Below are positions 1 to 18,280 of a DNA stretch of 64,000 nucleotides, one piece after another. A model generated the notes under the pieces. It was given only the letters and a program-made list of their open reading frames with translations, was not told the DNA's origin and did no database searches. The DNA is taken from positions 1 to 64,000 of the forward strand of contig NZ_MWQY01000012.1 of the NCBI RefSeq assembly GCF_002087085.1. Reading direction: 5' to 3'. Positions within the stretch are counted from its first letter, which is position 1; each line of letters begins with the position of its first letter. The position numbers and the translations under genes were made by a program.

Positions 1-49
1 AATTTATCATAAAAAGGCCCTCTTTTTCATTTTATTTGTGAGAAATGCG

Positions 50-1092
50 GGTTAGGTACCATGTATTTGGTCGTTCCCAAGCTCCGCAAAGGCGGGTATA
101 TACCCTTCTTTGTTACCGAGAAGAAACGGTCCGAACAGGCTCTCTTACAGGTTGTTCAAGAAGCATTCATTAACGGTGTATCTACCAGGAAAATAGATCG
201 CCTGGCGAAGCAGTTAGGAATTGAGAACATCTCAGCCAGCCAAGTCTCAGAGATCAATAAAGGGCTCGATGCACAGGTTGAACAGTTCCGAAATCGTCCC
301 TTGGAAGCAGAATATCCAGTCATATGGGTGGATGCTTTGTACGAGAAGATCCGTGTTGATCGTCGAGTCGTAAACTCCGCTGTAATGGTCGTCTGCGGCC
401 TCTCACGGACCGGAGAGCGCGAAATATTGGCTATCGAGGCCATGGATGCGGAGAACGAAGATAACTACCGCCAGCTGTTCATGAAGCTCAAGGAACGCGG
501 CCTCAAGAATGTGTGGCTTGCTGTTTCTGACGCTCACCAAGGATTAAAGAATGCCATTCGGAAAGAGTTCATTGGCAGCAGCTGGCAACGATGCAAGGTT
601 CACTTCATGAGGGACATCCTCGCCAAGGTTCGAGGAAAAAACAAGTAGTATGTTGCCAGTAAAATAAAGCATATTTGGCTGCAACCAACGCTTGTAGATG
701 CGCGAAAATATGCCAAGGATCTCATGGTAGAACTTGCTGGTAAGCACCCTGAAGCGATGGATATTCTGGATGAGGGCTTAGAGGATTCTCTGCAGTTCTT
801 TGGCTTTGAGAAGATAGATCATCGTAAAGTTGCATCTACTAATATGCTTGAACGCCTGAATAACGAAATCAGGAGGCGATCACGGGTTGTTGGGATCTTT
901 CCCTCGGCTGAGTCGTACATTCGACTAGTGACCTGTTACCTGATTGAATACACCGAAGACTGGACAACAAGCAGATCCTACATTAAAAAGGAAGTACTGG
1001 ATGAGCAGAGAGAGCTCATCCTAGACAAGGCCGCGTAATCCACTTCGGGGGAAGGCTCCTAGGTGAAATTGCGAACTTAATTGGACACTAGC
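50..1092 (+). mobile_element. IS256-family insertion sequence remnant (5'-truncated)
   Basis: Transposase motifs LVVPKLRKG, GVSTRK, WVDALYEK, SDAHQGL, WQRCKVHF, TNMLERLNNEIRRR. A right-end-like sequence TTGCGAACTTAATTGGACACTAGC ends near 1092. The N-terminus and left IR are absent. Confidence 0.85.
61..1038 (+). pseudogene. IS256-family transposase pseudogene
   Basis: ORFs 61..648 and 724..1038 share a frame and are separated only by one in-frame TAG at 646-648; 649-723 is open (YVASKIKHIWLQP...). The N-terminal part is missing. Confidence 0.85.
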
Positions 1093-1193
1093 TTTTGACG
1101 CAGGCTTTCAAAAAGACTGACAATATTGTTTACACAGTCTTCCTGATATGCTTGTATTTCGTATTGAAACTGCTTGGTTTCGGTTCTTGTCAT
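1077..1193 (-). pseudogene. N-terminal fragment of a cassette gene interrupted by IS256, resembling the start of a type III restriction (Res)/helicase subunit
   Basis: Hand translation gives MTRTETKQFQYEIQAYQEDCVNNIVSLFESLRQKL, then the ORF runs into the IS end. The F-x-x-x-Q-x-YQ-x-x-C-V-x-x-I-x-x-L-F pattern recalls Res N-termini. Confidence 0.35.
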
Positions 1194-1318
1194 AAATATC
1201 TACATTCCCTTTGTCTTGTACGAGTCATGGACGCCGAGCATCCAAGACGGGCAAGTTTTTTCTTCTTTTTCTTCGCACATGTATTTTACCAAAATAAATC
1301 TAGCCTCCCAAGCATTTC

Positions 1319-1409
1319 GCACAACGTCCCGGGAATATACGACGTTCGGCGTAAGCCGAATGTGGCGTAGCCCGGAACGAAGTGGAGCGTATATTCCCTG
1401 TTATACGAC
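1319..1409 (-). other. attC-like recombination site (non-canonical)
   Basis: Minus strand: GTCGTATAAC (inverse-core-like), perfect 11-bp IR GGGAATATACG/CGTATATTCCC (1331-1341, 1388-1398), inner hairpin TTCGGC-GTAA-GCCGAA (1345-1360), then GTTGTGC (core-like). It lies just after the cassette ORF stop. Confidence 0.7.
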
Positions 1410-1462
1410 CGCGACAGCGGCAAGCACCTTCAGGTGCGTAGCGTATTTTTTGGGGCATAATA

Positions 1463-1810
1463 CTACTGGAATTTTCCATATGCATTCTTCCAGTTATCTG
1501 CTATTTCAAAAAACTTCTCATATCCATTTTTTTTAATGTAATAAACAGCCTCTTTATATTTCCTGTATTTATAACCGTTTTTTGAGTACCACTCACCAAT
1601 AATATTGCAAGACTCTAACTCAGAACAATCTGCACAGGTGTCTTTTCCTTTATCTCTAAAACAACATAATTTAATTTTACATTTTGCCTTGTTTATATCT
1701 CGTTCACCTGTATCAAAACCAATTTTGCAACCTTTACAAACTCCTTCTAAAAAAGGTTTACATGTCTTGCAATATGCACCGCAGCATCCAGCATAACGAT
1801 TTGGATTCAT
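1463..1810 (-). CDS. Cys-rich DUF3795-like protein (gene cassette)
   Basis: 115 aa with CCGxxCxxC...CxGC...CxIxxCC...CxxC pattern; AT-rich; bounded by att-like sites. Confidence 0.7.
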   Translation of the reverse strand: MNPNRYAGCCGAYCKTCKPFLEGVCKGCKIGFDTGERDINKAKCKIKLCCFRDKGKDTCADCSELESCNIIGEWYSKNGYKYRKYKEAVYYIKKNGYEKFFEIADNWKNAYGKFQ

Positions 1811-1849
1811 TCTACCCCCCTACTTTATTCTTTATGCCCCAAGAAATAT

Positions 1850-1880
1850 GTCGTATAACTCCCCTTACCCGCATTATACA
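1850..1880 (-). other. attI-like site / cassette crossover point, with adjacent -10 box
   Basis: Minus strand reads TATAATGCGGGTAAGGGGA-GTTATACGAC. GTTATACGAC (1859-1850) is the exact reverse complement of the inverse core at the cassette's 3' end (1400-1409). TATAAT at 1878-1873 could drive cassette expression. Confidence 0.55.
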
Positions 1881-1927
1881 ATAAGTTTCCCTTTCTCAGA
1901 AGCGAAACCCGTATTGCCTCGGTTATA

Positions 1928-2749
1928 ATGGCTATGAACAGTACATTTTGTGACTCTTTGTTACAGAAGCTGAGGGAACACCTGCTTATGCGCAATTACT
2001 CTCCCCGCACGATCAAGGCGTATACCCGCTATTGCTCCGAATTCTGCACTTTCTGCCTGGATAATCCGTCCCTTGCGCGGGAGCAGAAGATTATCCGTTT
2101 TCTGAATACATACCCGGATCCCGCAACAAAAGCTGTTGCACGTTCAGCCCTAAAGTACCTGTATGCTAACATCCTTAAACTTCCGGCACCTGTTCTGCTG
2201 ACAAGAACCCGAAAAACCCGGAAACTACCGACTGTTTTAACCCGGGACCAGGTAGCAATGATTTTAAATACAATTCAAAACCCGAAACACCGTGCCATGA
2301 TCGCCATGATGTACGGGTCGGGACTGCGAGTCAGCGAGGTTGTCAAACTTAAAGTAGGAGATGTCAATCTGGCAAGAAACCGCATTCACGTACGTCAATC
2401 AAAAAACCTGAAAGACCGAATTACGGTTTTATCACCCTTATTGACGGATTATCTCAAGCTGATTACAAAAAACCGGCAGCCAAAAGAGTTTCTCTTTCAG
2501 ACCCAATGCAGTAACAGATATTCCGTAAGGACGCTCCAGACAATTTTCAAGCGGGCGCTTTCCAAATCCGGAATTTCCCTTGCGGCGTCCTGCCACAGCC
2601 TGCGACACTCCTTCGCCACAAGCCTGTTGGAAAGCGGTGTAGATATCCGCATTATCCAGGCTCAGCTGGGGCACTCAAACATCAAGACGACAATGCTATA
2701 TACACAGATTACCAGTGTAATAGAGGAATCCCTGTATTCGCCGCTTTAA
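1928..2749 (+). CDS. Integron-integrase-like tyrosine recombinase (lacks the IntI-specific insertion)
   Basis: N-terminal RNYSPRTIKAY, RKLPTVLT, YGSGLRVSE (R), SKNLKDR (K), HSLRHSFAT (HxxR), LGH, TMLY (Y), C-terminal SPL; divergent from the cassette array. Confidence 0.85.
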   Translation: MAMNSTFCDSLLQKLREHLLMRNYSPRTIKAYTRYCSEFCTFCLDNPSLAREQKIIRFLNTYPDPATKAVARSALKYLYANILKLPAPVLLTRTRKTRKLPTVLTRDQVAMILNTIQNPKHRAMIAMMYGSGLRVSEVVKLKVGDVNLARNRIHVRQSKNLKDRITVLSPLLTDYLKLITKNRQPKEFLFQTQCSNRYSVRTLQTIFKRALSKSGISLAASCHSLRHSFATSLLESGVDIRIIQAQLGHSNIKTTMLYTQITSVIEESLYSPL

Positions 2750-2800
2750 CGCATTGCGCAAAAGCTCCTTCTCCTGAATACTTTCTGAATTTCGCATAAG
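2738..2800 (+). repeat. 63-bp direct repeat, copy 1 (overlaps integrase stop)
   Basis: TCGCCGCTTTAACGCATTGCGCAAAAGCT...GAATTTCGCATAAG; 51/63 identical to 3616-3678 by manual alignment. Confidence 0.8.
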
Positions 2801-2876
2801 TGTCTGCAATCCGGCATAATCATCTCAAGCTGTTTTATAGAAATGTTGAGCAAAATATGCCTATAATCCGAATATC

Positions 2877-3587
2877 ATGGAAAAAGAAATACTCATCGTT
2901 AAAAACATAAGCCGCGAAGGTCCGGGTCTCCTGGAAGAGGTAATAAAAGAATGCGGCATTGCATACACGATTATCGACCTCGATCAGGGGCAAAATTTCC
3001 CTCCCGTTGAAAATTTCGGAGCAGTGGTTGTTCTCGGCGGTCCCGACAGTGCCAACGATACAAGTGAAAAGATGAAAAGCGAATTAGCCCGTATCCGCGA
3101 AGCGATTGAATCGAATATTCCATATCTCGGCATTTGTCTCGGCCTTCAGACTCTTGTCAAGGCAGCCGGCGGCACTATCATAATAAGTCCAACCAGGGAA
3201 GTAGGTTTCATTGATCCTGAAGGTAGAAATTTCACGACTGAACTTACTGCCGAGGGTAAAAGGGATCCGCTGTTTGATGGCCTCGACCATTCATTCAAGG
3301 TTTTCCATCTTCACGGTGAAACCGTCGAACTCACAAACGACATGACACTGCTGTCGGTTGGTAAATTCTGCCGTAACCAGGTCGTAAAGGTTGGCAAAAA
3401 TGCCTATGGTATGCAATGCCACTTCGAACTCACGCCGGAAATGATCGAGACCTGGATTAACGAGGACCCGGATCTTCTTTTACTCGACAAAAAGCAGCTT
3501 AAAGAGAACTTTGCGGCAATCCAGGATGACTACAGACGAACAGGACAGACGCTGTTTAATAACTTTTTACAGATAGCAGAGTTTTGA
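2877..3587 (+). CDS. Type 1 glutamine amidotransferase (GuaA-like GATase domain)
   Basis: VVLGGP, LGICLG (catalytic Cys), QCHFE (H-x-E triad). Confidence 0.85.
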   Translation: MEKEILIVKNISREGPGLLEEVIKECGIAYTIIDLDQGQNFPPVENFGAVVVLGGPDSANDTSEKMKSELARIREAIESNIPYLGICLGLQTLVKAAGGTIIISPTREVGFIDPEGRNFTTELTAEGKRDPLFDGLDHSFKVFHLHGETVELTNDMTLLSVGKFCRNQVVKVGKNAYGMQCHFELTPEMIETWINEDPDLLLLDKKQLKENFAAIQDDYRRTGQTLFNNFLQIAEF

Positions 3588-3615
3588 GATCTACGCTTTC
3601 AGTCGCATCGCACCC

Positions 3616-3678
3616 TCGCCGCATTAACGCATTGCGCATAAGCTTCTTTGCCGGATAGTTTTCCGAATTTTGCATAAG
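3616..3678 (+). repeat. 63-bp direct repeat, copy 2
   Basis: TCGCCGCATTAACGCATTGCGCATAAGCT...GAATTTTGCATAAG. Confidence 0.8.
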
Positions 3679-3772
3679 CACCAGCTTTCTATATGCATTC
3701 AAAGACATTTTCGTAGCGCTTCAGGGGAAAACACTGTTTCTGACAGTATTTTTCCGTTAAACTCCACGGTGT

Positions 3773-4849
3773 ATGACCGGATACATCTGGCAGGTGGAAA
3801 AAACGCAGAATCCCCGCTTTCCCTACCGGATTTCGATCCTTGAAGATGCACGCACTGTCCTCGCCCTGCGCGTTCAGGACAAGTGGCCGGGACAGAAGGG
3901 AAACATCTTCTGTATCCGGGAATACGGTGCACCCGACGACGGCGAGAATCTGGAACAGATCGAATCGGTCCCCATAGCCTTTCTGCGCAGGCAGGGAAAG
4001 CGGGTGGAGATTGTCCTCGACCGCCACAACCGCAAGCGCTGCGATTTTCTGTTCCTTAAAAAAGTATCCCCCTCCGGGGAAGCCCAGGAGCAGATCTTTT
4101 TCCGGACCCAGACGGGCCTGCGTTCCCACCGCAGTAAGGGCAGCCCTCTTTTGTACGGTTCGGAAAAACTCGAGATTGTTATCGACAGTTCAGAGCGCTA
4201 TCCCTGGCGCTTTCCGTCTGCAAACCTTGGCCGAAGCAGGCTTCCCGCAGGGGATTACGCCCTGGTGTGGGAAAACCGCTATATCGCTGTGGTCGAACGC
4301 AAGACCTTCGAGAATCTGCTTCACGACCTTTACGAAATCAGGATACTCCACCAGAAGCTGTCGGAGCTCTCATCCTTTCCCAATCCTGCGGTTGTAATTG
4401 AGGCCCAGTATGGGGATTATTCCGATACGGCCAGAATTGGAGACAGCTTATCAGCTCCCCACATTAACCGGCTGATCGGGGAGATTTCCGCCCTGCACCC
4501 GGGGGTTCAGCTTATTTTCGCCGGCAACCGCAAGCTCGCGAATGCCTGGACAAGCCGCTTTTTCGCAGCGGTCCGCAGACGCATAGCCGATTCCGGGCAG
4601 AACTCTGACGAAGCGGCGCAACGTCCGCCCACCTTTCTCAGTACTCCGGTCAGGCAGGACCTGGAAATTCGGAAAAAAATCCTGGAAGAGTACGCTCTGC
4701 GACCGGATGGTTTCAGCATGAAGGAACTCAAGGCAGATCTGGGTACTGCAGACACCGCACCCTTACGCAGAATAATCCAACAGCTTAAACGGGAAGAAAA
4801 AATACACTCCAGCGGAAAGGCAAGCGCCACCCGATGGCATATCTTATAG
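3773..4849 (+). CDS. ERCC4/XPF-family nuclease domain protein with probable C-terminal winged helix
   Basis: IVIDSSE...LPAGDY...VVERKT matches the GDXnERKX motif; C-terminal FSMKELKADLG...LKREEKIHSSG...TRW looks like a wHTH. Confidence 0.75.
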   Translation: MTGYIWQVEKTQNPRFPYRISILEDARTVLALRVQDKWPGQKGNIFCIREYGAPDDGENLEQIESVPIAFLRRQGKRVEIVLDRHNRKRCDFLFLKKVSPSGEAQEQIFFRTQTGLRSHRSKGSPLLYGSEKLEIVIDSSERYPWRFPSANLGRSRLPAGDYALVWENRYIAVVERKTFENLLHDLYEIRILHQKLSELSSFPNPAVVIEAQYGDYSDTARIGDSLSAPHINRLIGEISALHPGVQLIFAGNRKLANAWTSRFFAAVRRRIADSGQNSDEAAQRPPTFLSTPVRQDLEIRKKILEEYALRPDGFSMKELKADLGTADTAPLRRIIQQLKREEKIHSSGKASATRWHIL

Positions 4850-4881: not shown

Positions 4882-6276
4882 TTAAACACCTGAATTTACC
4901 TTGTTCCGACCTTCATGTTTTGCCCTGTACATTGCCTGATCCGCCCGGGAAAGGGCCGTGGTAAAATCTTCGTTGTCCCGCATCTCAACCACCCCGATTG
5001 TAACGGTGACAGAGCTTTCCTGCTCAATCCTGGCCCTGATTCTCTCGCTTATATCCAGAGCCCTCTGCATACCTGTGTGGACGACAAGAACAAACTCATC
5101 GCCGCCCCAGCGTACAATAAAGTCTTCATCCCGGATCTGGTTCTTGGCGAGACGGGAGACTTCCTTCAAAATAAAGTCTCCAGCCAGGTGGCCAAGATTG
5201 TCGTTCACCTCTTTAAAATGGTCGATATCCAGAGTCATCAGTGATATTTGACGCTGGTTGCGGTTACTTCTGCCGAAATACTCCTCCAGAAAATGCCGGT
5301 TATAGCTTTCCGTCAGGGAATCGGTATAACCCTTGATCGATAATTTCCTGCCAGCCCGGGAAACCAGAATATGATTGAGTGCCACAAGCAGCAGAGAAAA
5401 CACCATTCCCGCCGCAAAGGTTATAATACTCTGGCGCTGAAGGTCCTTATATGAATCTGTAATGTCGTGCTCGATAATAAGGTAGCGTTCTATTTCAGGG
5501 ATAAAACGGATATACAGCATCAGGGTAGATCCACCCTTCTCGGCCAGATAATGGGACCCATCGCCAAGGCTTTCTGCGGGGCCGTCAAGATTATATTCAT
5601 CAAAAAATGAGCGTCCCCGGTAATCAAGGGGAAGTCTCAGTTCCCCGTCCGGTTCAGCAAAAAGCATCCTGGTTTTTCTCTTTTCGCCTGCAATGTTCAG
5701 CGAAAAGCTGTCCAGGGAAATCCCGGTCCCGATAATTCCCGAAAGCTCCCCGGAGTCGCTTACAATCTTGCTGTCGAAAAAAAAGGAATAGAGTTCCACG
5801 GAGTTATCCGGATCATACAGACTGAATCGGTCCGTCTCAGGAGCGTCAAGAAAATCCTGCACCCAGCTGTCCCGGTCAGAGGAATAATCCAGCTCAAGGA
5901 TGTGACCGAAGGAATCGTAATACGTATCCGTTTCAAGAAAAACCAGACCCACGTTCTTGGCCCCGAGTTCGATCCTTTTCCTCCGTACAAAATCAAGAAT
6001 TCTGTCGGCATCCTCTCTGCCGTTCACACGGAACCGGGAAAGATCGACGGAATCGGCGATAAGGCGGTTTGCCAGGGAATATTTTTCTTTTACTCCATTA
6101 ATTTTTCCCACAACAGTATCGGCACAGGCGGGCAGGACCGATCCGGTAAGGTTTGCACTGAATACCCTCCGGGACATTCTGAAGTGGACGTAATTAATTA
6201 TAAAAAAACCGAAAAAAAAGATTATTGCCGAGAGTAAAATGATACGGTTTCGTTTATTTGCCTTTACATGCTGCAT
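4882..6276 (-). CDS. Membrane-bound sensor diguanylate cyclase
   Basis: Two TM segments flank a Cache-like periplasmic region; DIDHFKEVND...RWGGDEF...ADQAMYRAK. Confidence 0.9.
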   Translation of the reverse strand: MQHVKANKRNRIILLSAIIFFFGFFIINYVHFRMSRRVFSANLTGSVLPACADTVVGKINGVKEKYSLANRLIADSVDLSRFRVNGREDADRILDFVRRKRIELGAKNVGLVFLETDTYYDSFGHILELDYSSDRDSWVQDFLDAPETDRFSLYDPDNSVELYSFFFDSKIVSDSGELSGIIGTGISLDSFSLNIAGEKRKTRMLFAEPDGELRLPLDYRGRSFFDEYNLDGPAESLGDGSHYLAEKGGSTLMLYIRFIPEIERYLIIEHDITDSYKDLQRQSIITFAAGMVFSLLLVALNHILVSRAGRKLSIKGYTDSLTESYNRHFLEEYFGRSNRNQRQISLMTLDIDHFKEVNDNLGHLAGDFILKEVSRLAKNQIRDEDFIVRWGGDEFVLVVHTGMQRALDISERIRARIEQESSVTVTIGVVEMRDNEDFTTALSRADQAMYRAKHEGRNKVNSGV

Positions 6277-6306
6277 GTGTATTCAGGATCTCCGCCTCAG
6301 ATTAGA

Positions 6307-7098
6307 TCAGGACAGCAGCACCTCGTCATTCTCAAATTCCTTCTTCCTGATGGCATGAAACTTGTCCACAAGCTTTTCCACCGTCATATCCTGCTTTTCC
6401 CTGCCTTCGATGTCCAGGATTATTTCTCCTGCGTCCATCATCAGAAGCCGGTTTCCGTAGGCGATGGCGTTGGCCATGTTGTGGGTAATCATGATGGCGG
6501 TAAGCCTGTACTCTTCAATAAAGCGCTTGGTGAGTTCCAGGACCTTGGCGGCGTTCCTGGGGTCCAGGGCTGCAGTGTGTTCGTCCAGCAAAATCAGCGC
6601 CGGCCTTGACAGGACCATCATCAGCAGGGTAAGGGCCTGCCTCTGACCGCCGGAGAGCAGGTTTACGTTGTTCTTCAGCCGGGATTCAAGCCCCATATCC
6701 AGCACCTCGAGCTCCTTTCTGAACCTCTCCCTGAGCCGGCTGTTCAGGCTTATTCCGAGACCTTTGAAGCCCTTTTTGTGGCTGATGGTCATGTTGTCTT
6801 CCAGGCTCATGTTTCCCGCGGTTCCTAAAAGAGGATTCTGAAAAATGCGTCCGATATATTTGGCCCGTTTGTACTCGGGGGTTCTGGTAATATCCGCATC
6901 GTTGACGAAAATCTTCCCCTCCGTGGGAGCGTAGGTGCCGGCAATCAGATTGAAGAGAGTCGATTTACCCGCACCGTTGGAACCGATCACGGTAATAAAA
7001 TCCCCTTCTTTTACATTGAGGTTCACATTATGAATCGCCCTGGTTTCGTTGACAGTCCCTTCGTTGAATACCTTGGATACCTGTTCAAGCCTGATCAT
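6307..7098 (-). CDS. ABC transporter ATP-binding protein
   Basis: GSNGAGKS, LSGGQRQ, LLDEHTAALD. Confidence 0.9.
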   Translation of the reverse strand: MIRLEQVSKVFNEGTVNETRAIHNVNLNVKEGDFITVIGSNGAGKSTLFNLIAGTYAPTEGKIFVNDADITRTPEYKRAKYIGRIFQNPLLGTAGNMSLEDNMTISHKKGFKGLGISLNSRLRERFRKELEVLDMGLESRLKNNVNLLSGGQRQALTLLMMVLSRPALILLDEHTAALDPRNAAKVLELTKRFIEEYRLTAIMITHNMANAIAYGNRLLMMDAGEIILDIEGREKQDMTVEKLVDKFHAIRKKEFENDEVLLS

Positions 7099-7994
7099 AC
7101 CGCTGCCTGCCTTGTTCGTTTTCCGGATCTTATCTTTGTCATGATCAGGGACAGAATTATCAGAAGGCCGGTTATCAGTTTAAGATCATTGGGGGTCATT
7201 TTGATGATGTAGCCGTAGTATCGCCCCAGAAACATGATTCCCTTGAACACCACCGAGCCGATTACCACCCGCAGCAGCAGGGGCCATATTTTATTCGAAC
7301 GGATAAAAAACTCCCCGATCATCACCGAGGCAAGGCCTGTTACCACGATTCCCTGACCCAGGTTGGCGTCTGCAAATCCCTGGTACTGGGCAGCCAGGGC
7401 TCCGGCTATGCCCACAAGACCGTTGGAGAGGCCCACACCGATTATCTTCATAAGTTCCGGGTTCACTCCCTGGGAAATAACCATCTGCTGGTTGTTTCCC
7501 ATGGCCCCCAGGGTAAGCCCCAGGTCGGTATGAAAAAAGAGGTCCAAGACAAGGATAATACCCCCCACAACGAACAGCAGAAAAAGGAGTACTCCGTATT
7601 CCGCAGGGATTCCAAGTCCCTCGCTCAAATCCTGGATAGCGCTGAAGGCGGTGGTCACCTGCAGAAGGGGCAGGTTGGCCCGGTTTCCCAGTACCCTGAT
7701 ATTCACGGAGTAGAGCATGGTCATGGTCAGGATTCCCGCCAGGAGATTCGGTACCTTCAGCTTGTTGTGGATAAGGGCGGTGACGATTCCCGCCAGGATT
7801 CCCCCCAGAAGGGCCAGCAGTATCGCGATCAGCACCGGTAGCCCGGCGGTAATGGCGGACGCCGCAATGGCCGCTCCAAAGGGAAAACTCCCGTCCACCG
7901 TCAGGTCCGGAAAATCAAGAATCCTGAAGGTAATAAATACCCCCAGGGCCAGTATGCCGTAAATCAATCCTTCGTGGAGAATACCTTCAATCAC
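7095..7994 (-). CDS. ABC transporter permease (putative aromatic amino acid uptake)
   Basis: Hydrophobic; FRILDFPDLTVDGSF motif. Confidence 0.85.
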   Translation of the reverse strand: MIEGILHEGLIYGILALGVFITFRILDFPDLTVDGSFPFGAAIAASAITAGLPVLIAILLALLGGILAGIVTALIHNKLKVPNLLAGILTMTMLYSVNIRVLGNRANLPLLQVTTAFSAIQDLSEGLGIPAEYGVLLFLLFVVGGIILVLDLFFHTDLGLTLGAMGNNQQMVISQGVNPELMKIIGVGLSNGLVGIAGALAAQYQGFADANLGQGIVVTGLASVMIGEFFIRSNKIWPLLLRVVIGSVVFKGIMFLGRYYGYIIKMTPNDLKLITGLLIILSLIMTKIRSGKRTRQAAV

Positions 7995-13367: not shown

Positions 13368-14752
13368 GAGGGCTCCTTGAATCCCGGGCAGCGCGCCGGT
13401 TCATACACGGAAAGGAACTCCCGGGCGGCGGAAAAGAGCCGTTCTTCGCAGAAGGCCGGGGCGAGAAGCTGCATGCCCACCGGAACATTACCGTCCATCC
13501 CGGCCGGAATACTGAGCCCGGGAATCCCCGCCAGGTTGGCCGCGGCGGTAAACTTGTCCGCCAGTTTCTGCTGGAAGGCATCCATTCCCGACTCACCGTG
13601 GGGAAAAGCGGCCACCGGAAAGGTGGGCATAAGGAGCATCTCCGCTCCCTGGAAAACTTTGGAAAACTCGTCGCCTATCAATGTACGGATCCGCTGGGCC
13701 CGGCCGTAGTACTGGTCCTGAAAACCCGAACGAAGCACATAGGTTCCCAGGAGTATCCTGAGCTTGACCTCGTGTCCGAACCCCTCGCTCCGGGTGTTTC
13801 GCACCATATCGGCGTGGTCCTCCCCTTCTGCCCGGTAGCCGTAGCGTATACCGGTGTAGCGGGCCAGGTTCGCCGAGGCTTCGGCGGTGGCGATGGTATA
13901 GTAGGCGGGGACCACGTAGTCCAGGGTCTTCAGCCTGACCGGGACAATCTCCCAGCCGATCTCCCTGAATCCTTCCAGGGATTTGCGATAAACCGCATCC
14001 ACTCCGGGACTCAGGTCCGAAAGATCCTCCAGAACTGCAATTCGGCGGGATGAAGATTCCCCCGACCGGTCCTCCCAGGGAACGCTGGTCTGATCTTTGG
14101 GGTCCTCCCCTTTTATCGAGTCAAAAACCTGGCGGCAGGTATCTACGTCTCCGGCCAGGATCCCGATGCTCTCCAGGGAGGATGCATAGGCCACAAGGCC
14201 GTAGCGGGAAACCGCACCGTAGGTGGGTTTGAGTCCGTAGACCCCGCAGAAGGAGGCGGGCTGCCGCACCGATCCGCCGGTGTCGCTGCCCAGGGCAAAG
14301 GGCACCAGCCCAGCGGCCACCGCCGCAGCCGAACCACCGGAGGAGCCGCCGGGAACCCTCGCCGGGTCCCAGGGATTGGAACTTGCCCCGTGTACTGAGT
14401 TCTCGCAGGAGGAACCCATGCCGAACTCATCCAGGTTGCACTTTCCGTAGACCCGGGCGCCGGTGGCTTCCAGCCGTTCCACCGCGGTGGCGGTATATGG
14501 CGAGATAAACCCCTCCAGTATCTTTGACCCGCAGCTCAAACCGAGGCCTTTAACAGCGATATTGTCCTTGACCCCGTAGGGAACCCCCGCCAGGGCCCCC
14601 TCCCCGTTTCCGGGCCGGGGATCTATCTGAACAAAGGAATTGATCTTCTTTTCCCATTCGTCAACGTAGCTTCGGTGAGCCGCTGCCCGGCGGGGATCGT
14701 CCAGCATGCCGCGCCAGGAAGCCGGTATTGCGTTTGTTCGTGTGTTTTTCAT
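13364..14752 (-). CDS. gatA: Asp/Glu-tRNA amidotransferase subunit A
   Basis: Amidase signature GGSSGGS...GSDTGGSVRQPA. Confidence 0.95.
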   Translation of the reverse strand: MKNTRTNAIPASWRGMLDDPRRAAAHRSYVDEWEKKINSFVQIDPRPGNGEGALAGVPYGVKDNIAVKGLGLSCGSKILEGFISPYTATAVERLEATGARVYGKCNLDEFGMGSSCENSVHGASSNPWDPARVPGGSSGGSAAAVAAGLVPFALGSDTGGSVRQPASFCGVYGLKPTYGAVSRYGLVAYASSLESIGILAGDVDTCRQVFDSIKGEDPKDQTSVPWEDRSGESSSRRIAVLEDLSDLSPGVDAVYRKSLEGFREIGWEIVPVRLKTLDYVVPAYYTIATAEASANLARYTGIRYGYRAEGEDHADMVRNTRSEGFGHEVKLRILLGTYVLRSGFQDQYYGRAQRIRTLIGDEFSKVFQGAEMLLMPTFPVAAFPHGESGMDAFQQKLADKFTAAANLAGIPGLSIPAGMDGNVPVGMQLLAPAFCEERLFSAAREFLSVYEPARCPGFKEPS

Positions 14753-14767
14753 ACCCTGATCCCGTCC

Positions 14768-15049
14768 TTATCCGAGGACCTTGGGAATCCGGAAGAAACG
14801 TTCCTGCCGGTCCGGACTGTTGGACAGGATCCCTTCCGAGAGGTCCCCGGTTCGAGCCTGATCCGGACGGGTCCGGTTGCCCCGGAGTCCCACGTGGGTG
14901 GTAGCTTCAATACCTTCCACGTCGATGCCCTTCATCAATTCAAAATATTCCAGAATGCGGCCGACCTCATCCTCGAAGGCTGCCCGTTCATCCCCGGACA
15001 GATTCAGGTTTGCCAGTTCGGCGGTAACGTCGAGTTCTTTTTCTTCCAT
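14768..15049 (-). CDS. gatC: Asp/Glu-tRNA amidotransferase subunit C
   Basis: Small protein ending FFRIPKVL upstream of gatA; the start could instead be the GTG at 15061. Confidence 0.85.
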   Translation of the reverse strand: MEEKELDVTAELANLNLSGDERAAFEDEVGRILEYFELMKGIDVEGIEATTHVGLRGNRTRPDQARTGDLSEGILSNSPDRQERFFRIPKVLG

Positions 15050-15307
15050 GATTGGAGCCACTCTACCGGAGTATTCTTCCCTCTGTCAATACAAGAAGCT
15101 AACTGTTTACACGACAACGGATTAAATAGTTTTCGCCGCCCATCGAAACTCTCTCCCGGTGGTCCGACCGATTTGACTTTTTATCCGCAATACTGTATTC
15201 TTAAAACTTATCCTGCAACATAACCTTTTATCGACTATAAAAATACACAGAACGGTTTTAGTGTATTATAATTGTCGTGTATACCCCGATACGGGTAAGG
15301 AGTATTC

Positions 15308-16732
15308 GTGGTCAAGACGGGCTTTCCCACTATTCACTTCTATGACCAAGATTTTGTAGATCTTTACGATCGGACCTGGGCCTGGCTCGAAGACTTCTGG
15401 GCCAGGGGGACGAAAAAAAACGGCCTTGAATCACGCTTTTTCTGTTATCCCTCCAGTGAGACGGTAAACCAGTTCGACGCCTGCCTCTCCACCTTCTTTC
15501 TGGTCTACAGCAACAAGGTGTACCCGGCGTCTCCCTCGCTGGATAACTTCTATGCCAAGCAGGAGGAATCCGGAGCCATCCGCGGGGAATACAATATCGC
15601 CAGCGGTAAAGCGGTTCTCACAGACGAGAACCCCGAAGGTGCCGCTCCGCCCCTTTTTTCCTACGCCGAGTACAACCTCTATCATAAAGAGGGAAACAAG
15701 AAGCGCCTGAAAGAGGTCATGCCGATCCTGGAAAAGTACTTCGACTGGCTGGAGACAACCTTCAAGGACGATACAGGGATGTACAGCGTACCCTTCGCGG
15801 CCCTCTACATGCCCAACGCTCCCCGGACACAGGCCAAATACCCGGTGGATTTCAATACCCAGCAGGCCATCAACGCCCTCTATATGTCCGCCATCGGAGA
15901 CGTATTGAACGACAAGGAGATGAGCTTCAAATACAAGAGGCACTATTTCTCCCTGAAAACCCGCATAAACTCCCAGATGTGGGACAGCGAAACCGGCTTC
16001 TATCATGATCTGGACGAGAACCAGCAGCGCCTTCCCCAGAAGACCATCGCCGGATTCTGGCCCCTCCTGGCGGAGATTCCCAACGAAGACCGGGCCAACA
16101 GCATGATAGACCACCTGAAGAATCCCAGTACCTTCGGCCTGGAAAACCCCTTTCCGACCCTTTCGGCGGATGATCCCGATTTCTCCGAGGAGGGTGAGGG
16201 CTGCCGCGGATCGGTGGTGCCGGCTTTTACCTTTATGGTCGTCAAAGGACTGGAAAAATTCGCCCGCTACGAGCTGGCCCGGGAATGCGCCATCCGTCAC
16301 CTCTACTATATGCTGGACACCCTGCATCCCGAAGGCAAGGAGAAGGGCAACATCTACGAGGCCTATGCACCCCGGCGGGACGGACCGGCCAAATGGACAG
16401 GGAACCCCGACTACCCCCGGCCGCTCTACCTGGCGTATGCCGCCCTCTCGGCAGTGACCCTGATGATCGAAAACATCATCGGTCTGTACATAAGCCTGCC
16501 CCGCAAGACCGTGGACTGGATAATCCCGACCCTGGAGATCATGGGTATAGAGGGACTCTCCCTGAAGCGGAACATGATCACCATCCTCAGCAACAAGAGC
16601 GGACGGGGCTGGGAAATCAGGCTGGAATCGGAAAAGCTCTACTACTTTACCATTAATATCCTGAGCGAGCGCAAAAAGAAGACCCTGCCCATCCCCTCGG
16701 GCAAGTGCTCCATGCTGATCGATAAGCTGTAG
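15308..16732 (+). CDS. Glycoside hydrolase of the (alpha/alpha)6 GH63/MGH1/trehalase-like group
   Basis: PPLF, MWDSETGFYHD, GFWPLLA, FPTLSADDPDF motifs. Confidence 0.65.
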   Translation: MVKTGFPTIHFYDQDFVDLYDRTWAWLEDFWARGTKKNGLESRFFCYPSSETVNQFDACLSTFFLVYSNKVYPASPSLDNFYAKQEESGAIRGEYNIASGKAVLTDENPEGAAPPLFSYAEYNLYHKEGNKKRLKEVMPILEKYFDWLETTFKDDTGMYSVPFAALYMPNAPRTQAKYPVDFNTQQAINALYMSAIGDVLNDKEMSFKYKRHYFSLKTRINSQMWDSETGFYHDLDENQQRLPQKTIAGFWPLLAEIPNEDRANSMIDHLKNPSTFGLENPFPTLSADDPDFSEEGEGCRGSVVPAFTFMVVKGLEKFARYELARECAIRHLYYMLDTLHPEGKEKGNIYEAYAPRRDGPAKWTGNPDYPRPLYLAYAALSAVTLMIENIIGLYISLPRKTVDWIIPTLEIMGIEGLSLKRNMITILSNKSGRGWEIRLESEKLYYFTINILSERKKKTLPIPSGKCSMLIDKL

Positions 16733-16744
16733 GGGTAAAAGGGC

Positions 16745-17518
16745 ATGAGTTTTTTCGGCAAGTTCATCGGCGGAACCATCGGCTTTCTGATGGGCGGCCC
16801 CCTGGGGGCGATTGCGGGAGTGGCCTTTGCCCACGTTCTGCAGCAGTCCCAGGATGCGGACCGGATCTCCGGGTCCTCCTACTTCCGCAACTACAACCGC
16901 CGCATGAACACCACCGAACACTCCCACATGACCTTCTTTGTGGGAGCCTTCTCCCTGCTGGCCAAACTGGCCAATGTGGACGGAGAGCTGACCCGCAACG
17001 AAGAGGCGACCATCCGGCGTTTCATGATCGAAGAGCTCAGGCTCGATCCCACCTCCCAGTACACCGCCCTCAGGATATTCGACGCAGCCCTCAGCACCGA
17101 TCAGGACTACGGCGACATCGCCCGCCAGTTTTACCGGGAGTTCCGTAACCGTCCCCAGATCCTGGAGCTGATGATCGACATCCTCTTCCGTGTGGCCATA
17201 GCCGACGGGGGTGTGAACAAAGCCGAGGGAAGCATGATCCTGAACATCGCCAGGATCTTCAACTTTCAGCAGTACCAGTACGACCGGATCAAGGAACGCT
17301 ACGTCGCGAACACCAACAAGTACTACGCCATCCTGAACTGCCGCCCGGAAGACAACGACGAGACCATAAAAAAGTCCTACCGCAAGCTGGTCCGGGAAAA
17401 CCACCCCGACGCCATCGCCGCCAAGGGACTTCCGGACGAATTCCAGAAGGTCGCGGCTGACAAGTTTCGCCAGATCCAGGACGCCTACGAGCATATCCGC
17501 AAGGAGCGCGGATTCTAG
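16745..17518 (+). CDS. djlA: Co-chaperone DjlA
   Basis: N-terminal GKFIGGTIGFLMGGPLGA TM segment, TerB-like middle, C-terminal J domain with HPD. Confidence 0.85.
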   Translation: MSFFGKFIGGTIGFLMGGPLGAIAGVAFAHVLQQSQDADRISGSSYFRNYNRRMNTTEHSHMTFFVGAFSLLAKLANVDGELTRNEEATIRRFMIEELRLDPTSQYTALRIFDAALSTDQDYGDIARQFYREFRNRPQILELMIDILFRVAIADGGVNKAEGSMILNIARIFNFQQYQYDRIKERYVANTNKYYAILNCRPEDNDETIKKSYRKLVRENHPDAIAAKGLPDEFQKVAADKFRQIQDAYEHIRKERGF

Positions 17519-17524
17519 TACAGC

Positions 17525-18280
17525 ATGATCCGGCTGCGCTTTTACGAGGAGCTGAACGACTTTCTCGACCCGGAACGCCGCAAGTGCAGCTTCTCGATTC
17601 CCTTCAATTTTACCAGGAGCGTAAAGGACCTCATTGAATCCCTGGGAGTCCCCCACGTGGAGGTCGATCTTATCCTGGTCAACGGGGAATCCGTGGGCTT
17701 CGACTACCTGGTACAGGACGGCGACCTGATCAGTGTTTACCCCGTCTTCGAAGGCCTGGATATCTCCGAGGTTACCCGGCTGCGGCCTCAGCCCCTGCGG
17801 GAGTCCCGCTTTATAGCCGACGTGCATCTAAAAACCCTGGTGCGAAAACTCAGGATGCTGGGTTTCGATACCCTCTACGATCCCTCCTGGGACGATCCGG
17901 AGCTGGCGGCGGTCTCCAACAGGGAGGAGCGGATACTCCTTACCCGGGACCGGGGATTATTGAAGCGCAGTATAGTACGCCGCGGACTCTATATCCGGTC
18001 CCACCGTCCCGATGAACAGCTTCGGGAGGTGATTCGTCGCCTGGATCTTTCAAAAAGCGCCCGGCCCCTCAGCCGCTGCATACGCTGCAACGGGCCTCTG
18101 GAACGCATCGGTCTGCAGAAAGCCCTGGACGAGAACAGCGACGGGGCTCCAATCCCCCGGGATGTTCAGGAGGAGCAGAAGGAGATATCCCGCTGTACCC
18201 GCTGCGGAAAGTTCTACTGGCGGGGCAGTCACTACGACAGGATGATTGCCCAGATAAGAAGTATCCTATTTTCTGCTTGA
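17525..18280 (+). CDS. Mut7-C ubiquitin-like/RNase domain protein
   Basis: RFYEELNDFL...SVKDLIESLGVPH; FIADVHL...LRMLGFD...RILLTRDR; CxxC...CxxC...YWRGSH. Confidence 0.85.
   Translation: MIRLRFYEELNDFLDPERRKCSFSIPFNFTRSVKDLIESLGVPHVEVDLILVNGESVGFDYLVQDGDLISVYPVFEGLDISEVTRLRPQPLRESRFIADVHLKTLVRKLRMLGFDTLYDPSWDDPELAAVSNREERILLTRDRGLLKRSIVRRGLYIRSHRPDEQLREVIRRLDLSKSARPLSRCIRCNGPLERIGLQKALDENSDGAPIPRDVQEEQKEISRCTRCGKFYWRGSHYDRMIAQIRSILFSA

Follow-up and report, generated by a model that had tools for sequence, protein, structure and literature searches.

A probable chromosomal integron-like cassette platform headed by a tyrosine recombinase without the integron-integrase insertion in a relative of Marispirochaeta

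Background

Can gene cassettes be captured and exchanged by a tyrosine recombinase that lacks the additional segment by which integron integrases are recognised? This question is raised by the beginning of contig NZ_MWQY01000012.1 (NCBI RefSeq assembly GCF_002087085.1), of which positions 1 to 64,000 of the forward strand, i.e., the first 64 kb of the contig here called C4, were analysed and are referred to as the window. The genome (G000) comprises 4.2 Mb in 79 contigs, and the proteins of the window have their closest named relatives in Marispirochaeta (phylum Spirochaetota). Near the start of the window, a gene for a tyrosine recombinase of 273 amino acids (aa) lies divergently from a short open reading frame (ORF) bordered by complementary sequences, and the original prediction, made from the sequence alone, regarded this arrangement as a non-canonical class of integron. 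The analysis presented here supports that reading: the recombinase lacks the insertion, the complementarity of cassette starts and ends extends to the orthologous arrays, the cassette content is variable, and related attachment sites recur in relatives. The locus probably forms the start of a sedentary chromosomal platform of integron-like type, served by an integrase without the insertion.

A paper of 2001 is said to state in its title that an additional domain is necessary for integron integrase activity. Escudero et al. (2016), as far as accessible, assign this extra domain specifically to the single-strand pathway. Its presence serves as the defining feature of integron integrases, and detection software depends on it, as far as the accessible parts of Cury et al. 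(2016), of the publication on IntegronFinder 2.0 and of Ghaly et al. (2021) state.

Results

The recombinase gene (positions 1928 to 2749, plus strand) encodes a 273-aa protein that contains KDRITVLSPLLTDYLKLITKNRQPKEFLF and ends, as predicted, in SPL; it is divergent from an ORF for a cysteine-rich protein of 115 aa (1463 to 1810, minus strand). Profile, structure and selection data characterise it as an insert-less, IntI/XerA-like tyrosine recombinase, which is proposed here as the cassette integrase. Concerning its domains, it matches Phage_integrase (PF00589, E = 7e-41) and the SAM-like N-terminal domain Phage_int_SAM_4. Among the curated families, the integron integrase profile TIGR02249 fits best, with 198.6 bits distributed over two stretches, which is below the cut-off of 265, and the XerA profile NF040815 likewise remains below its cut-off (192.2 bits, cut-off 220). 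The canonical integron integrase (IntI) encoded elsewhere in the same genome scores 393.7 bits to TIGR02249.

The best relative of solved structure is VchIntIA (PDB 2a3v), of which residues 6-178 and 245-316 align to residues 12-177 and 201-272 of the window's protein. Between the two aligned stretches, the 273-aa protein possesses 23 residues, whereas 2a3v possesses 66, i.e., a difference of about 43. In an alignment of 12 sequences (A1), 27 plus 14 columns are present in all four canonical IntIs and absent from all eight short proteins, and in a second alignment of eight sequences (A3), the same insert is found in the three canonical rows, including IntI1 from a class 1 integron, and in none of the five short ones. 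The claim that the IntI-specific segment is absent is thus borne out, with approximately 41-43 residues fewer. The catalytic residues R134, K159/K162, H223, R226, H249 and Y258 are invariant in both alignments. The ratio of nonsynonymous to synonymous substitution rates (dN/dS) against orthologs amounts to 0.137 (87% identical), 0.085 (81% identical) and 0.084 in the three pairs with computable dS, and these values indicate that the gene is under purifying selection and is not a decaying copy.

The AlphaFold model of the protein is confident, with a predicted local distance difference test score (pLDDT) of 88.9, and its top fold match is 2a3v, followed by XerA (5hxy). Nearly all of the best 120 of 4307 database relatives have a length of 262-285 residues, and many of the closest ones (38-46% identity) are unnamed or bear the names XerD or 'site-specific tyrosine recombinase/integron integrase'. 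In a quick maximum likelihood tree (53 rows, 270 columns), the 12 canonical IntIs including IntI1 form one clade (SH-like approximate likelihood ratio test, SH-aLRT, 99), and the short proteins of the genus form a clade (99) within a separate short clade of 18 rows (99); this quick tree does not order the short groups and the IntI clade relative to the two Xer outgroups. The window's protein stands outside the clade that joins IntI1 with the IntIs of spirochaetes. A recent origin of the short enzyme by deletion from the canonical IntI of the same genome is therefore excluded, and the score below the TIGR02249 cut-off agrees with the predicted non-canonical class.

Each of the seven genomes of the order examined possesses one ortholog of the recombinase. 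The putative attI core (1859 to 1880; TGTATAATGCGGGTAAGGGGAG when read on the minus strand) lies 69 bp upstream of the recombinase start. Its crossover point follows the G at 1859 (G|TT, marked by the bar), and six genomes of the genus share the conserved site (TGTAYAATGCGGATAAG.GTAG|TTA). The conserved block consists of TGTAYAAT, 12 further nucleotides and AG|(T/A)T, and its spacing from the start codon is identical in all six orthologous loci. Immediately after the attI G, the sequences of these six loci are unrelated to each other, and in a blastn comparison of the window with the closest genome (locus L002), homology starts at 1853 with nothing further to the left. The cassette content hence varies across strains, as expected for an integron, and the difference begins exactly at the G|TT point. 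The first cassette of another of these loci (L062) is the second one in L002, where an extra element of about 160 nt without an ORF is situated exactly between the attI G and this common cassette. The arrays beside the orthologs extend over at least 15 kb and contain co-oriented toxin-antitoxin pairs, acetyltransferases and small unknown ORFs. A TATAAT box (1873-1880), 14 nt before the crossover, is present in all six loci (as TACAAT in two of them) and may serve as a cassette promoter; a scan for sigma-70 consensus promoters called none at attI and a promoter-like site at 1311-1283, within cassette 2.

The element of about 160 nt occurs in three copies in L002 (around 4885-5040, 1185-1345 and 100-255, minus strand), each directly after a crossover G, once at attI and twice after an attC G. 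It starts with G|AT(A/C)AAC and ends with ...AACCGCCGCCC G. Compensatory differences between the copies affect the first bases and the GTT(T/G)ATC of the element, which scores weakly (18.8-21.3 bits) in the covariance model R1 described below.

Cassette 1 (1325 to 1858, minus strand) is 534 nt long, starts with TTATACGAC, ends at the G at 1325 and holds the 115-aa ORF and an attC; its delimitation relies on the complementarity treated below (seven of eight positions) and on metagenome contigs. The ORF product resembles DUF3795 only weakly (E = 0.02, 15.8 bits, below cut-off), and a clearer DUF3795 cassette is found in the array of L002 (E = 1.5e-6). Cassette 2 (1087 to 1324, minus strand), delimited by its sequence and again by metagenome contigs, is truncated: it starts with TTGTGCGAAATG at 1324, and from an ATG at 1193 it continues for about 35 codons until it meets the end of an element of the IS256 family; a Pfam search with this stub gave no match.

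The pair of core and inverse core that had drawn attention to the locus is present, with GTTATACGAC at 1859-1850 of the minus strand and its exact complement GTCGTATAAC at 1409-1400, and so is the hairpin that follows the ORF and ends in G|TTGTGC (1325-1319). The inverted repeat is even longer than first reported, since a repeat search revealed an inner arm (1444 to 1460, without strand) that pairs with 1832-1848 over 17 nt with 94% complementarity; together with 1400-1409 / 1850-1859, it comprises about 28 bp, interrupted by a 34-nt insert. A similar repeat of 25 nt flanks one cassette ORF in L002 (1408-1432 / 1796-1772). The R boxes of classical integron sites measure 7 bp and are thus shorter than this complementarity of 25-28 bp in the window and in the L002 cassette.

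Whether a cassette's end matches its own beginning was scored by comparing the 11 nt that end in the AAC of R'' with the G and the first 10 nt after the nearest upstream crossover, which leaves eight variable positions. For the script-detected sites of the six orthologous arrays, at least six of the eight positions match in 14 of 23 cognate pairs versus 27 of 506 non-cognate pairs. Among the first cassettes, adjacent to attI, five of six score 6 or 7 of 8, the one in the window scoring 7. The complementarity that the original prediction took as the hallmark of integron cassettes is therefore a general property of these arrays.

Inverted repeats that bracket an ORF directly beside a recombinase gene, as 1400-1409/1850-1859 and 1444-1460/1832-1848 do here, could also belong to an invertible switch for phase variation, with the repeat of about 28 bp as the site of inversion. 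The repeat is, however, explained by the cassette rule, which is valid across many cassettes of unrelated content; in relatives, the segment is replaced, not inverted; and the opposite orientation occurs in no contig of four metagenome runs, although contigs can miss rare forms. An invertible switch is thus highly improbable, and this reading was rejected. The sole joint listed in the contigs is an unrelated skip of 138 nt in run X2 (2151-2290); it falls within the recombinase gene and has 29 different letters in place of the missing ones.

The attC of cassette 1 (1315 to 1410, minus strand) belongs to a type with unpaired bases in its stem, termed bulged type here. It is composed of R'' (GTCGTATAAC, 1409-1400), an unpaired A (1399), L'' (1398-1388), a conserved core with an inner hairpin, L' (1341-1331), the unpaired GGGAC (1330-1326) and the G at 1325, after which TTGTGC of cassette 2 follows. 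On the array strand, the consensus of the bulged type begins with about seven variable bases, TAAC, an unpaired A and a stem arm of 11 nt; the core contains the conserved C(A/G)CC(C/A)AAATTGG and a small inner hairpin, followed by AAC(T/G)TC leading into the return arm, and its CACCCAAATTGG is conserved. Among 22 distinct sites, the unpaired pentamer GGAAC shows the composition G18/A4, G15/A6, A16/G5, A22 and C22, and is succeeded by G in 22, T in 20, T in 22 and A in 19 of the 22 sites. As judged by eye, these extra bases are situated on the L'-R' arm, unlike in the canonical attCs of the same genome.

A script that required stem pairing found 23 bulged sites in the six arrays. RNAalifold, applied to a MAFFT alignment of 15 short sites, recovered the 11-bp stem unaided, with seven of the 11 L-stem pairs changed on both sides. 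With the three-helix structure, 87.9% of the cells are paired, versus 72.2% in shuffles (none of 500 as high), and double changes are found in 11 of 21 pairs; if the partner is slid by one to three columns, only 20-47% remain paired. An Rfam scan of positions 1 to 4000 yielded nothing but a chance match to a snoRNA (E = 0.19).

From 15 bulged sites, a covariance model (R1) was built and applied with a threshold of E = 0.1 or better. The window's attC scores 90.1 bits (E = 5e-21) but is itself a training sequence and matches by construction. In 30 sources (415 kb), R1 gave 43 matches, 15 of them training sequences and 28 not, all on the array strand and beside short recombinases, so that the window's site does not represent a random match. 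Sites of this kind hence recur between co-oriented ORFs in relatives, as both R1 and the script scans confirm for what had been predicted. Within its own genome, a blastn search with the window's attC, cassette and flanks found no second copy, and R1 found two sites only, that of the window and one on contig C16; the members of the bulged family differ too much from each other to be recognised by BLAST.

Contigs of four metagenome runs (X1-X4) were compared with positions 1087-2800, and they provide comparative, not direct, evidence concerning excision. A contig of X3 corresponds to 1691..1859 without mismatch and then passes into a different attC 3' end (...CTCGCGGAAC; on the array strand ...AACTTCGGGTACTCGCGGAAC before the G), and one of X1 corresponds to 1331..1859 with one mismatch and then passes into other DNA of like build, the identity being 99-100% in X1 and X3. 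Furthermore, X1 contains 1323..1360 followed by different DNA, and in X3 and X4 the DNA of cassette 2 (from 1208 or 1235 to 1327) is situated behind yet other attC ends. Since the contigs of X1, X3 and X4 break at 1323-1327 and those of X1 and X3 also diverge after 1859, each cassette is found in other company and is broken at the predicted crossover, a pattern that points to independent movement of the cassettes. Neither a circle junction nor an empty attI was among the joints listed, and contigs would not be expected to show them.

In addition to the short recombinase, G000 encodes a canonical IntI of 414 aa with an N-terminal extension (C34:2826..4070), which has its own array on the minus strand. 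This classical integron covers C34:1-4070 (L060), and its array is scattered over the starts of contigs C9, C41, C46 and C58 and the end of C75. Both enzymes are present in all six genomes of the genus, at distant loci. The canonical attCs have a length of about 170 nt, their ends read TATAAC-CAGCAATTGGAGC ... GCTCAATTGGAT-GTTAT, and the pentamer bulge is absent from them; a generic palindrome finder misses these sites with their interrupted stems and was not used to compare the families. In blastn searches with the canonical attC, the four canonical arrays yielded 3, 16, 9 and 20 rows, whereas five loci of the short type yielded no row at all. Conversely, R1 had no match in the canonical arrays and their adjoining DNA (L060, L061, L066, L067, L068), and none of its 62 genome-wide sites in genomes G002 to G006 (22 in G003, 27 in G004) is situated inside a canonical array. 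On a class 1 integron with five cassettes, its best hit reached 6.5 bits (E = 3.9). Within these genomes, the bulged attC family is thus kept apart from the arrays of the canonical IntI.

Away from the main platform, further clusters of bulged attCs are found in G003 (C1:591907-602966) and in G004 (C5:28145-37567, C4:42213-44107 and C3:597-13873), the last of them about 7 kb from a second recombinase of the short type (C3:21035-21562).

One toxin-antitoxin cassette is common to both kinds of array. This BrnT/BrnA-like cassette from the short-type array of G003 (L063, 6365-7097; compared over 6200-7250) recurs twice, with 90% identity, in the canonical array of G005 (L068, 13350-14650 and 17345-18083). 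In L068, its parts appear in circular permutation: first the 3' half of a bulged attC, then G|TTATTGG, the cassette body, CCAATAAC and finally the 5' half. Both halves pair perfectly, and the canonical attC separates them at the place that the loop of the inner hairpin would occupy. Such an arrangement would be expected if a circular cassette of the bulged type that carried a second, canonical attC had been captured by the canonical system; the permutation implies a circular form and points to one route of traffic between the systems.

Beyond the genus, R1 matches are found in 37 of 151 sampled genomes of Spirochaetota (30 of 88 genera). Five further R1-positive genomes of spirochaetes (G030, G038, G098, G140, G155) were chosen for their multiple matches, and in none of the five does a protein match TIGR02249 over the cut-off. 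In G098 (one contig, 98% complete) and in G155 (99% complete), an insert-less recombinase is situated divergently beside seven and four R1 sites, respectively; in G030, the recombinase is represented by a fragment of 112 aa only. Outside the phylum, at loci retrieved by means of the window's protein, R1 matches sites in a Flavobacterium (L003, two), in Flavobacteriales (L008, one), in another member of Bacteroidota (L012, one) and in Peribacteria (L005, three), all of the same build and obeying the chain rule, i.e., the complementarity described above. In the Flavobacterium locus L003, and also in L008, the array follows downstream of the recombinase gene in the same orientation, and the domain that corresponds to the recombinase constitutes the C-terminal half of a protein of about 580 aa. 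Such relatives of about 580-590 aa, whose C-terminal portion of about 280 residues matches the window's enzyme, occur in L003, L004 and L008 (Flavobacterium, Bergeyella, Flavobacteriales).

With these data, a different assignment of roles can be weighed, namely that the canonical IntI (C34:2826..4070) moves the cassettes in trans, that the short recombinase is a conserved neighbour which serves some other purpose or has no function, and that the array is in effect a cluster of attC sites lacking an integron integrase (CALIN). The presence of a canonical IntI in all six genomes of the genus and the cassette found in both array types are in line with it. Equally, the accessible part of Cury et al. 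(2016) describes 50 recombinases without the insert in the vicinity of attC sites; for 29 of these, the genome encodes an IntI at another place, and the authors judge such enzymes not to be IntI. However, the attC families are unmixed, R1 being without match in five canonical loci and the canonical type in five short-type loci, and all 62 genome-wide R1 sites are located outside canonical arrays. The five other R1-positive spirochaete genomes lack a canonical IntI, and in two of them arrays abut insert-less recombinases. Moreover, the junction between variable and conserved sequence lies 69 bp from the start of the short gene in all six loci, the short gene itself is under purifying selection, and the cassette common to both array types contains the bulged attC in two separate halves, which play no boundary role, the boundaries being formed by canonical attCs. 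Mobilisation in trans by the canonical IntI is accordingly regarded as improbable.

To the left of the cassettes, the array is cut at about 1086, where the right end of an IS256-family element forms its limit. The pseudogene of the IS256-family transposase, including this right end, occupies 61 to 1086 (plus strand) with the ORF pieces 61..648 and 724..1038, an in-frame stop between them and matches to Transposase_mut and NF033543. The N-terminal 70 codons of the gene are found at the end of contig C10 (L001, from 17736), the remainder in the window (61..1038); the gene is split by a 1.68-kb insertion sequence (IS), contained in contig C51, that sits within it. The right end of this multi-copy IS makes up positions 1 to 55 of the window (without strand), as follows from exact 55-nt overlaps with the ends of C16, C22, C30 and C51, and the contig breaks here because of it. 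Two details of the original prediction do not hold at this end. The ATG at position 10 of the minus strand, suggested as the start of a further cassette gene, lies inside the terminal 55 bases of the multi-copy IS and is therefore none, and the additional cassettes expected to the left of the window are precluded by the IS256-family pseudogene, itself split by another IS. Concerning a continuation beyond the IS elements, neither attC type was found at the end of C10 (L001). The flanks of the IS256-family element on its two sides, read by eye, are unrelated and show no target duplication. The array of G000 is hence a stump, with one cassette and a second one cut by a dead IS256-family element.

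Some further features of the flanks are added here. At the end of C10, L001 contains a run of minus-strand ORFs of low GC content (34-42%) with short spacers (14300-17640), which was not counted as an array; the products are alpha/beta hydrolase-like, glyoxalase-like, GNAT-like and DinB-like, and a DUF1330-like gene fragment adjoins the left end of the IS256-family element. To the right of the recombinase (window positions 2877-3587 and 3773-4849), the closest genome (L002) lacks the adjoining class-I glutamine amidotransferase gene and has a partial deletion in the neighbouring ERCC4-domain gene, so that the right flank is variable too. The second R1 site of G000, on C16 (57085-57184, minus strand, 44 bits), is an orphan at about 270 nt from a C51-type IS copy at the contig end and may be a displaced piece of the array.

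Such a truncation suggests that the system could be real in the genus and nevertheless a dead remnant in G000, an integrase without partners beside a single, fixed cassette. Two R1 sites stand against 22 in G003 and 27 in G004, the array is cut by a pseudogene that is in turn interrupted, and the only other site is an orphan beside another copy of the same IS. On the other hand, the gene is intact with all of its catalytic residues and has a dN/dS of 0.137 relative to the 87%-identical ortholog, the attI and one complete attC are intact, which is enough for capture or excision, and pieces of the array may be unassembled, since the assembly consists of 79 contigs. A mere remnant in G000 is therefore considered rather unlikely.

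Discussion

The organization found in the window is best explained as the head of a cassette platform, and the following course of events would account for it. The complementarity of about 10 nt between each cassette start and the cassette's own R'' is the trace left by cassettes that are excised as circles and inserted again at G|TT. The 273-aa enzyme would bind attI and the folded attC, in the form of a hairpin or a cruciform, and exchange strands at G|TT. Since it lacks the I2 helix, by which classical IntI grips extrahelical bases, it probably reads the GGAAC bulge together with the CACCCAAATTGG core, which would set the polarity. The TATAAT box located 14 nt before the crossover may drive expression of the cassettes. 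In G000, insertions of IS elements have reduced the array to one cassette and a stub, with the integrase gene left intact.

Several points weigh against this reading. That the cutting and joining is performed by the 273-aa enzyme is something that we infer from the sequences. A canonical IntI is found in every genome of the genus, such that action in trans is possible for the genus, and the toxin-antitoxin cassette common to both types of array indicates that the two systems are not fully isolated; the judgement of Cury et al. (2016), as far as accessible, points in the same direction. With only two R1 sites in G000, the platform may be inactive there. Concerning the sites themselves, the 235 of 242 paired cells in the bulged sites are partly due to construction, as the finder required pairing; the pairing rate is therefore not independent evidence, and it is the covariation counts that carry weight. 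The fold of the window's attC as single-stranded DNA is modest (-22.4 kcal/mol, z = -2.2 versus shuffles). The chain rule fails in nine of 23 cognate pairs, mostly over long spans (up to 4.4 kb), and these failures probably result from missed intermediate sites.

On a larger scale, one may tentatively suppose, with a degree of confidence short of even, that insert-less recombinases and bulged attCs constitute a second, ancient and widespread integron lineage (Spirochaetota, Bacteroidota and the candidate phyla radiation), that the I2 domain is not needed for capture at hairpin sites and may postdate it, and that the genus holds two orthogonal systems which trade cassettes via nested dual sites.

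A conserved and selected enzyme without the domain at true cassette arrays would mean that censuses miss a whole class, that some arrays scored as lacking an integrase may have one, and that recognition of single-stranded or cruciform sites is achievable in another way. The presence of two integrases and two attC families per genome, with no mixing of the families detected, would offer a natural test of site specificity and of what replaces the I2 helix, and an orthogonal pair of cassette recombinases would be a useful tool. In full-text searches, outside which subscription journals largely lay, no paper was found that describes integrases devoid of the additional domain as the enzymes of integron arrays. 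Ghaly et al. (2021) modelled a 'Spirochaetes' attC type, which may correspond to either the bulged or the canonical family described here.

Among the known systems, recombinases of the Xer type (XerA, NF040815; PDB 4a8e, 5hxy) share with the window's enzyme the length class, the absence of the insert and a strong similarity in sequence and fold. In contrast to them, the window's enzyme remains below the XerA cut-off, and in all six genomes of the genus its gene is located at the head of a cassette array and not at a single dif-type site (dif was not searched for); besides, G000 has separate XerC/D-like genes on contig C6. CALINs, as defined by Cury et al. (2016), resemble the present arrays insofar as these would be scored as lacking an integrase under the intI_Cterm definition, provided that a generic attC model detects the sites at all, whereas a specific conserved recombinase and an attI are situated at the head of the arrays here.

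The organization is most similar to that of sedentary chromosomal integrons such as that of Vibrio cholerae (IntIA with its V. cholerae repeats, VCR; 2a3v), despite some differences: the window's enzyme lacks the IntI segment of about 41-43 residues, remains below the TIGR02249 cut-off and stands outside the IntI clade, and its attC possesses asymmetric loops of one versus five nucleotides with a conserved GGAAC and core. Common to both are an integrase gene divergent from a co-oriented array, an attI beside this gene and the crossover at G|TT, as well as an imperfectly palindromic site whose R'' pairs with the first bases of its own cassette. Equally, the chromosomal position is conserved within the genus, the typical contents comprise toxin-antitoxin pairs, acetyltransferases and small unknown ORFs, and VchIntIA is the best match among the solved structures by sequence as well as by fold.

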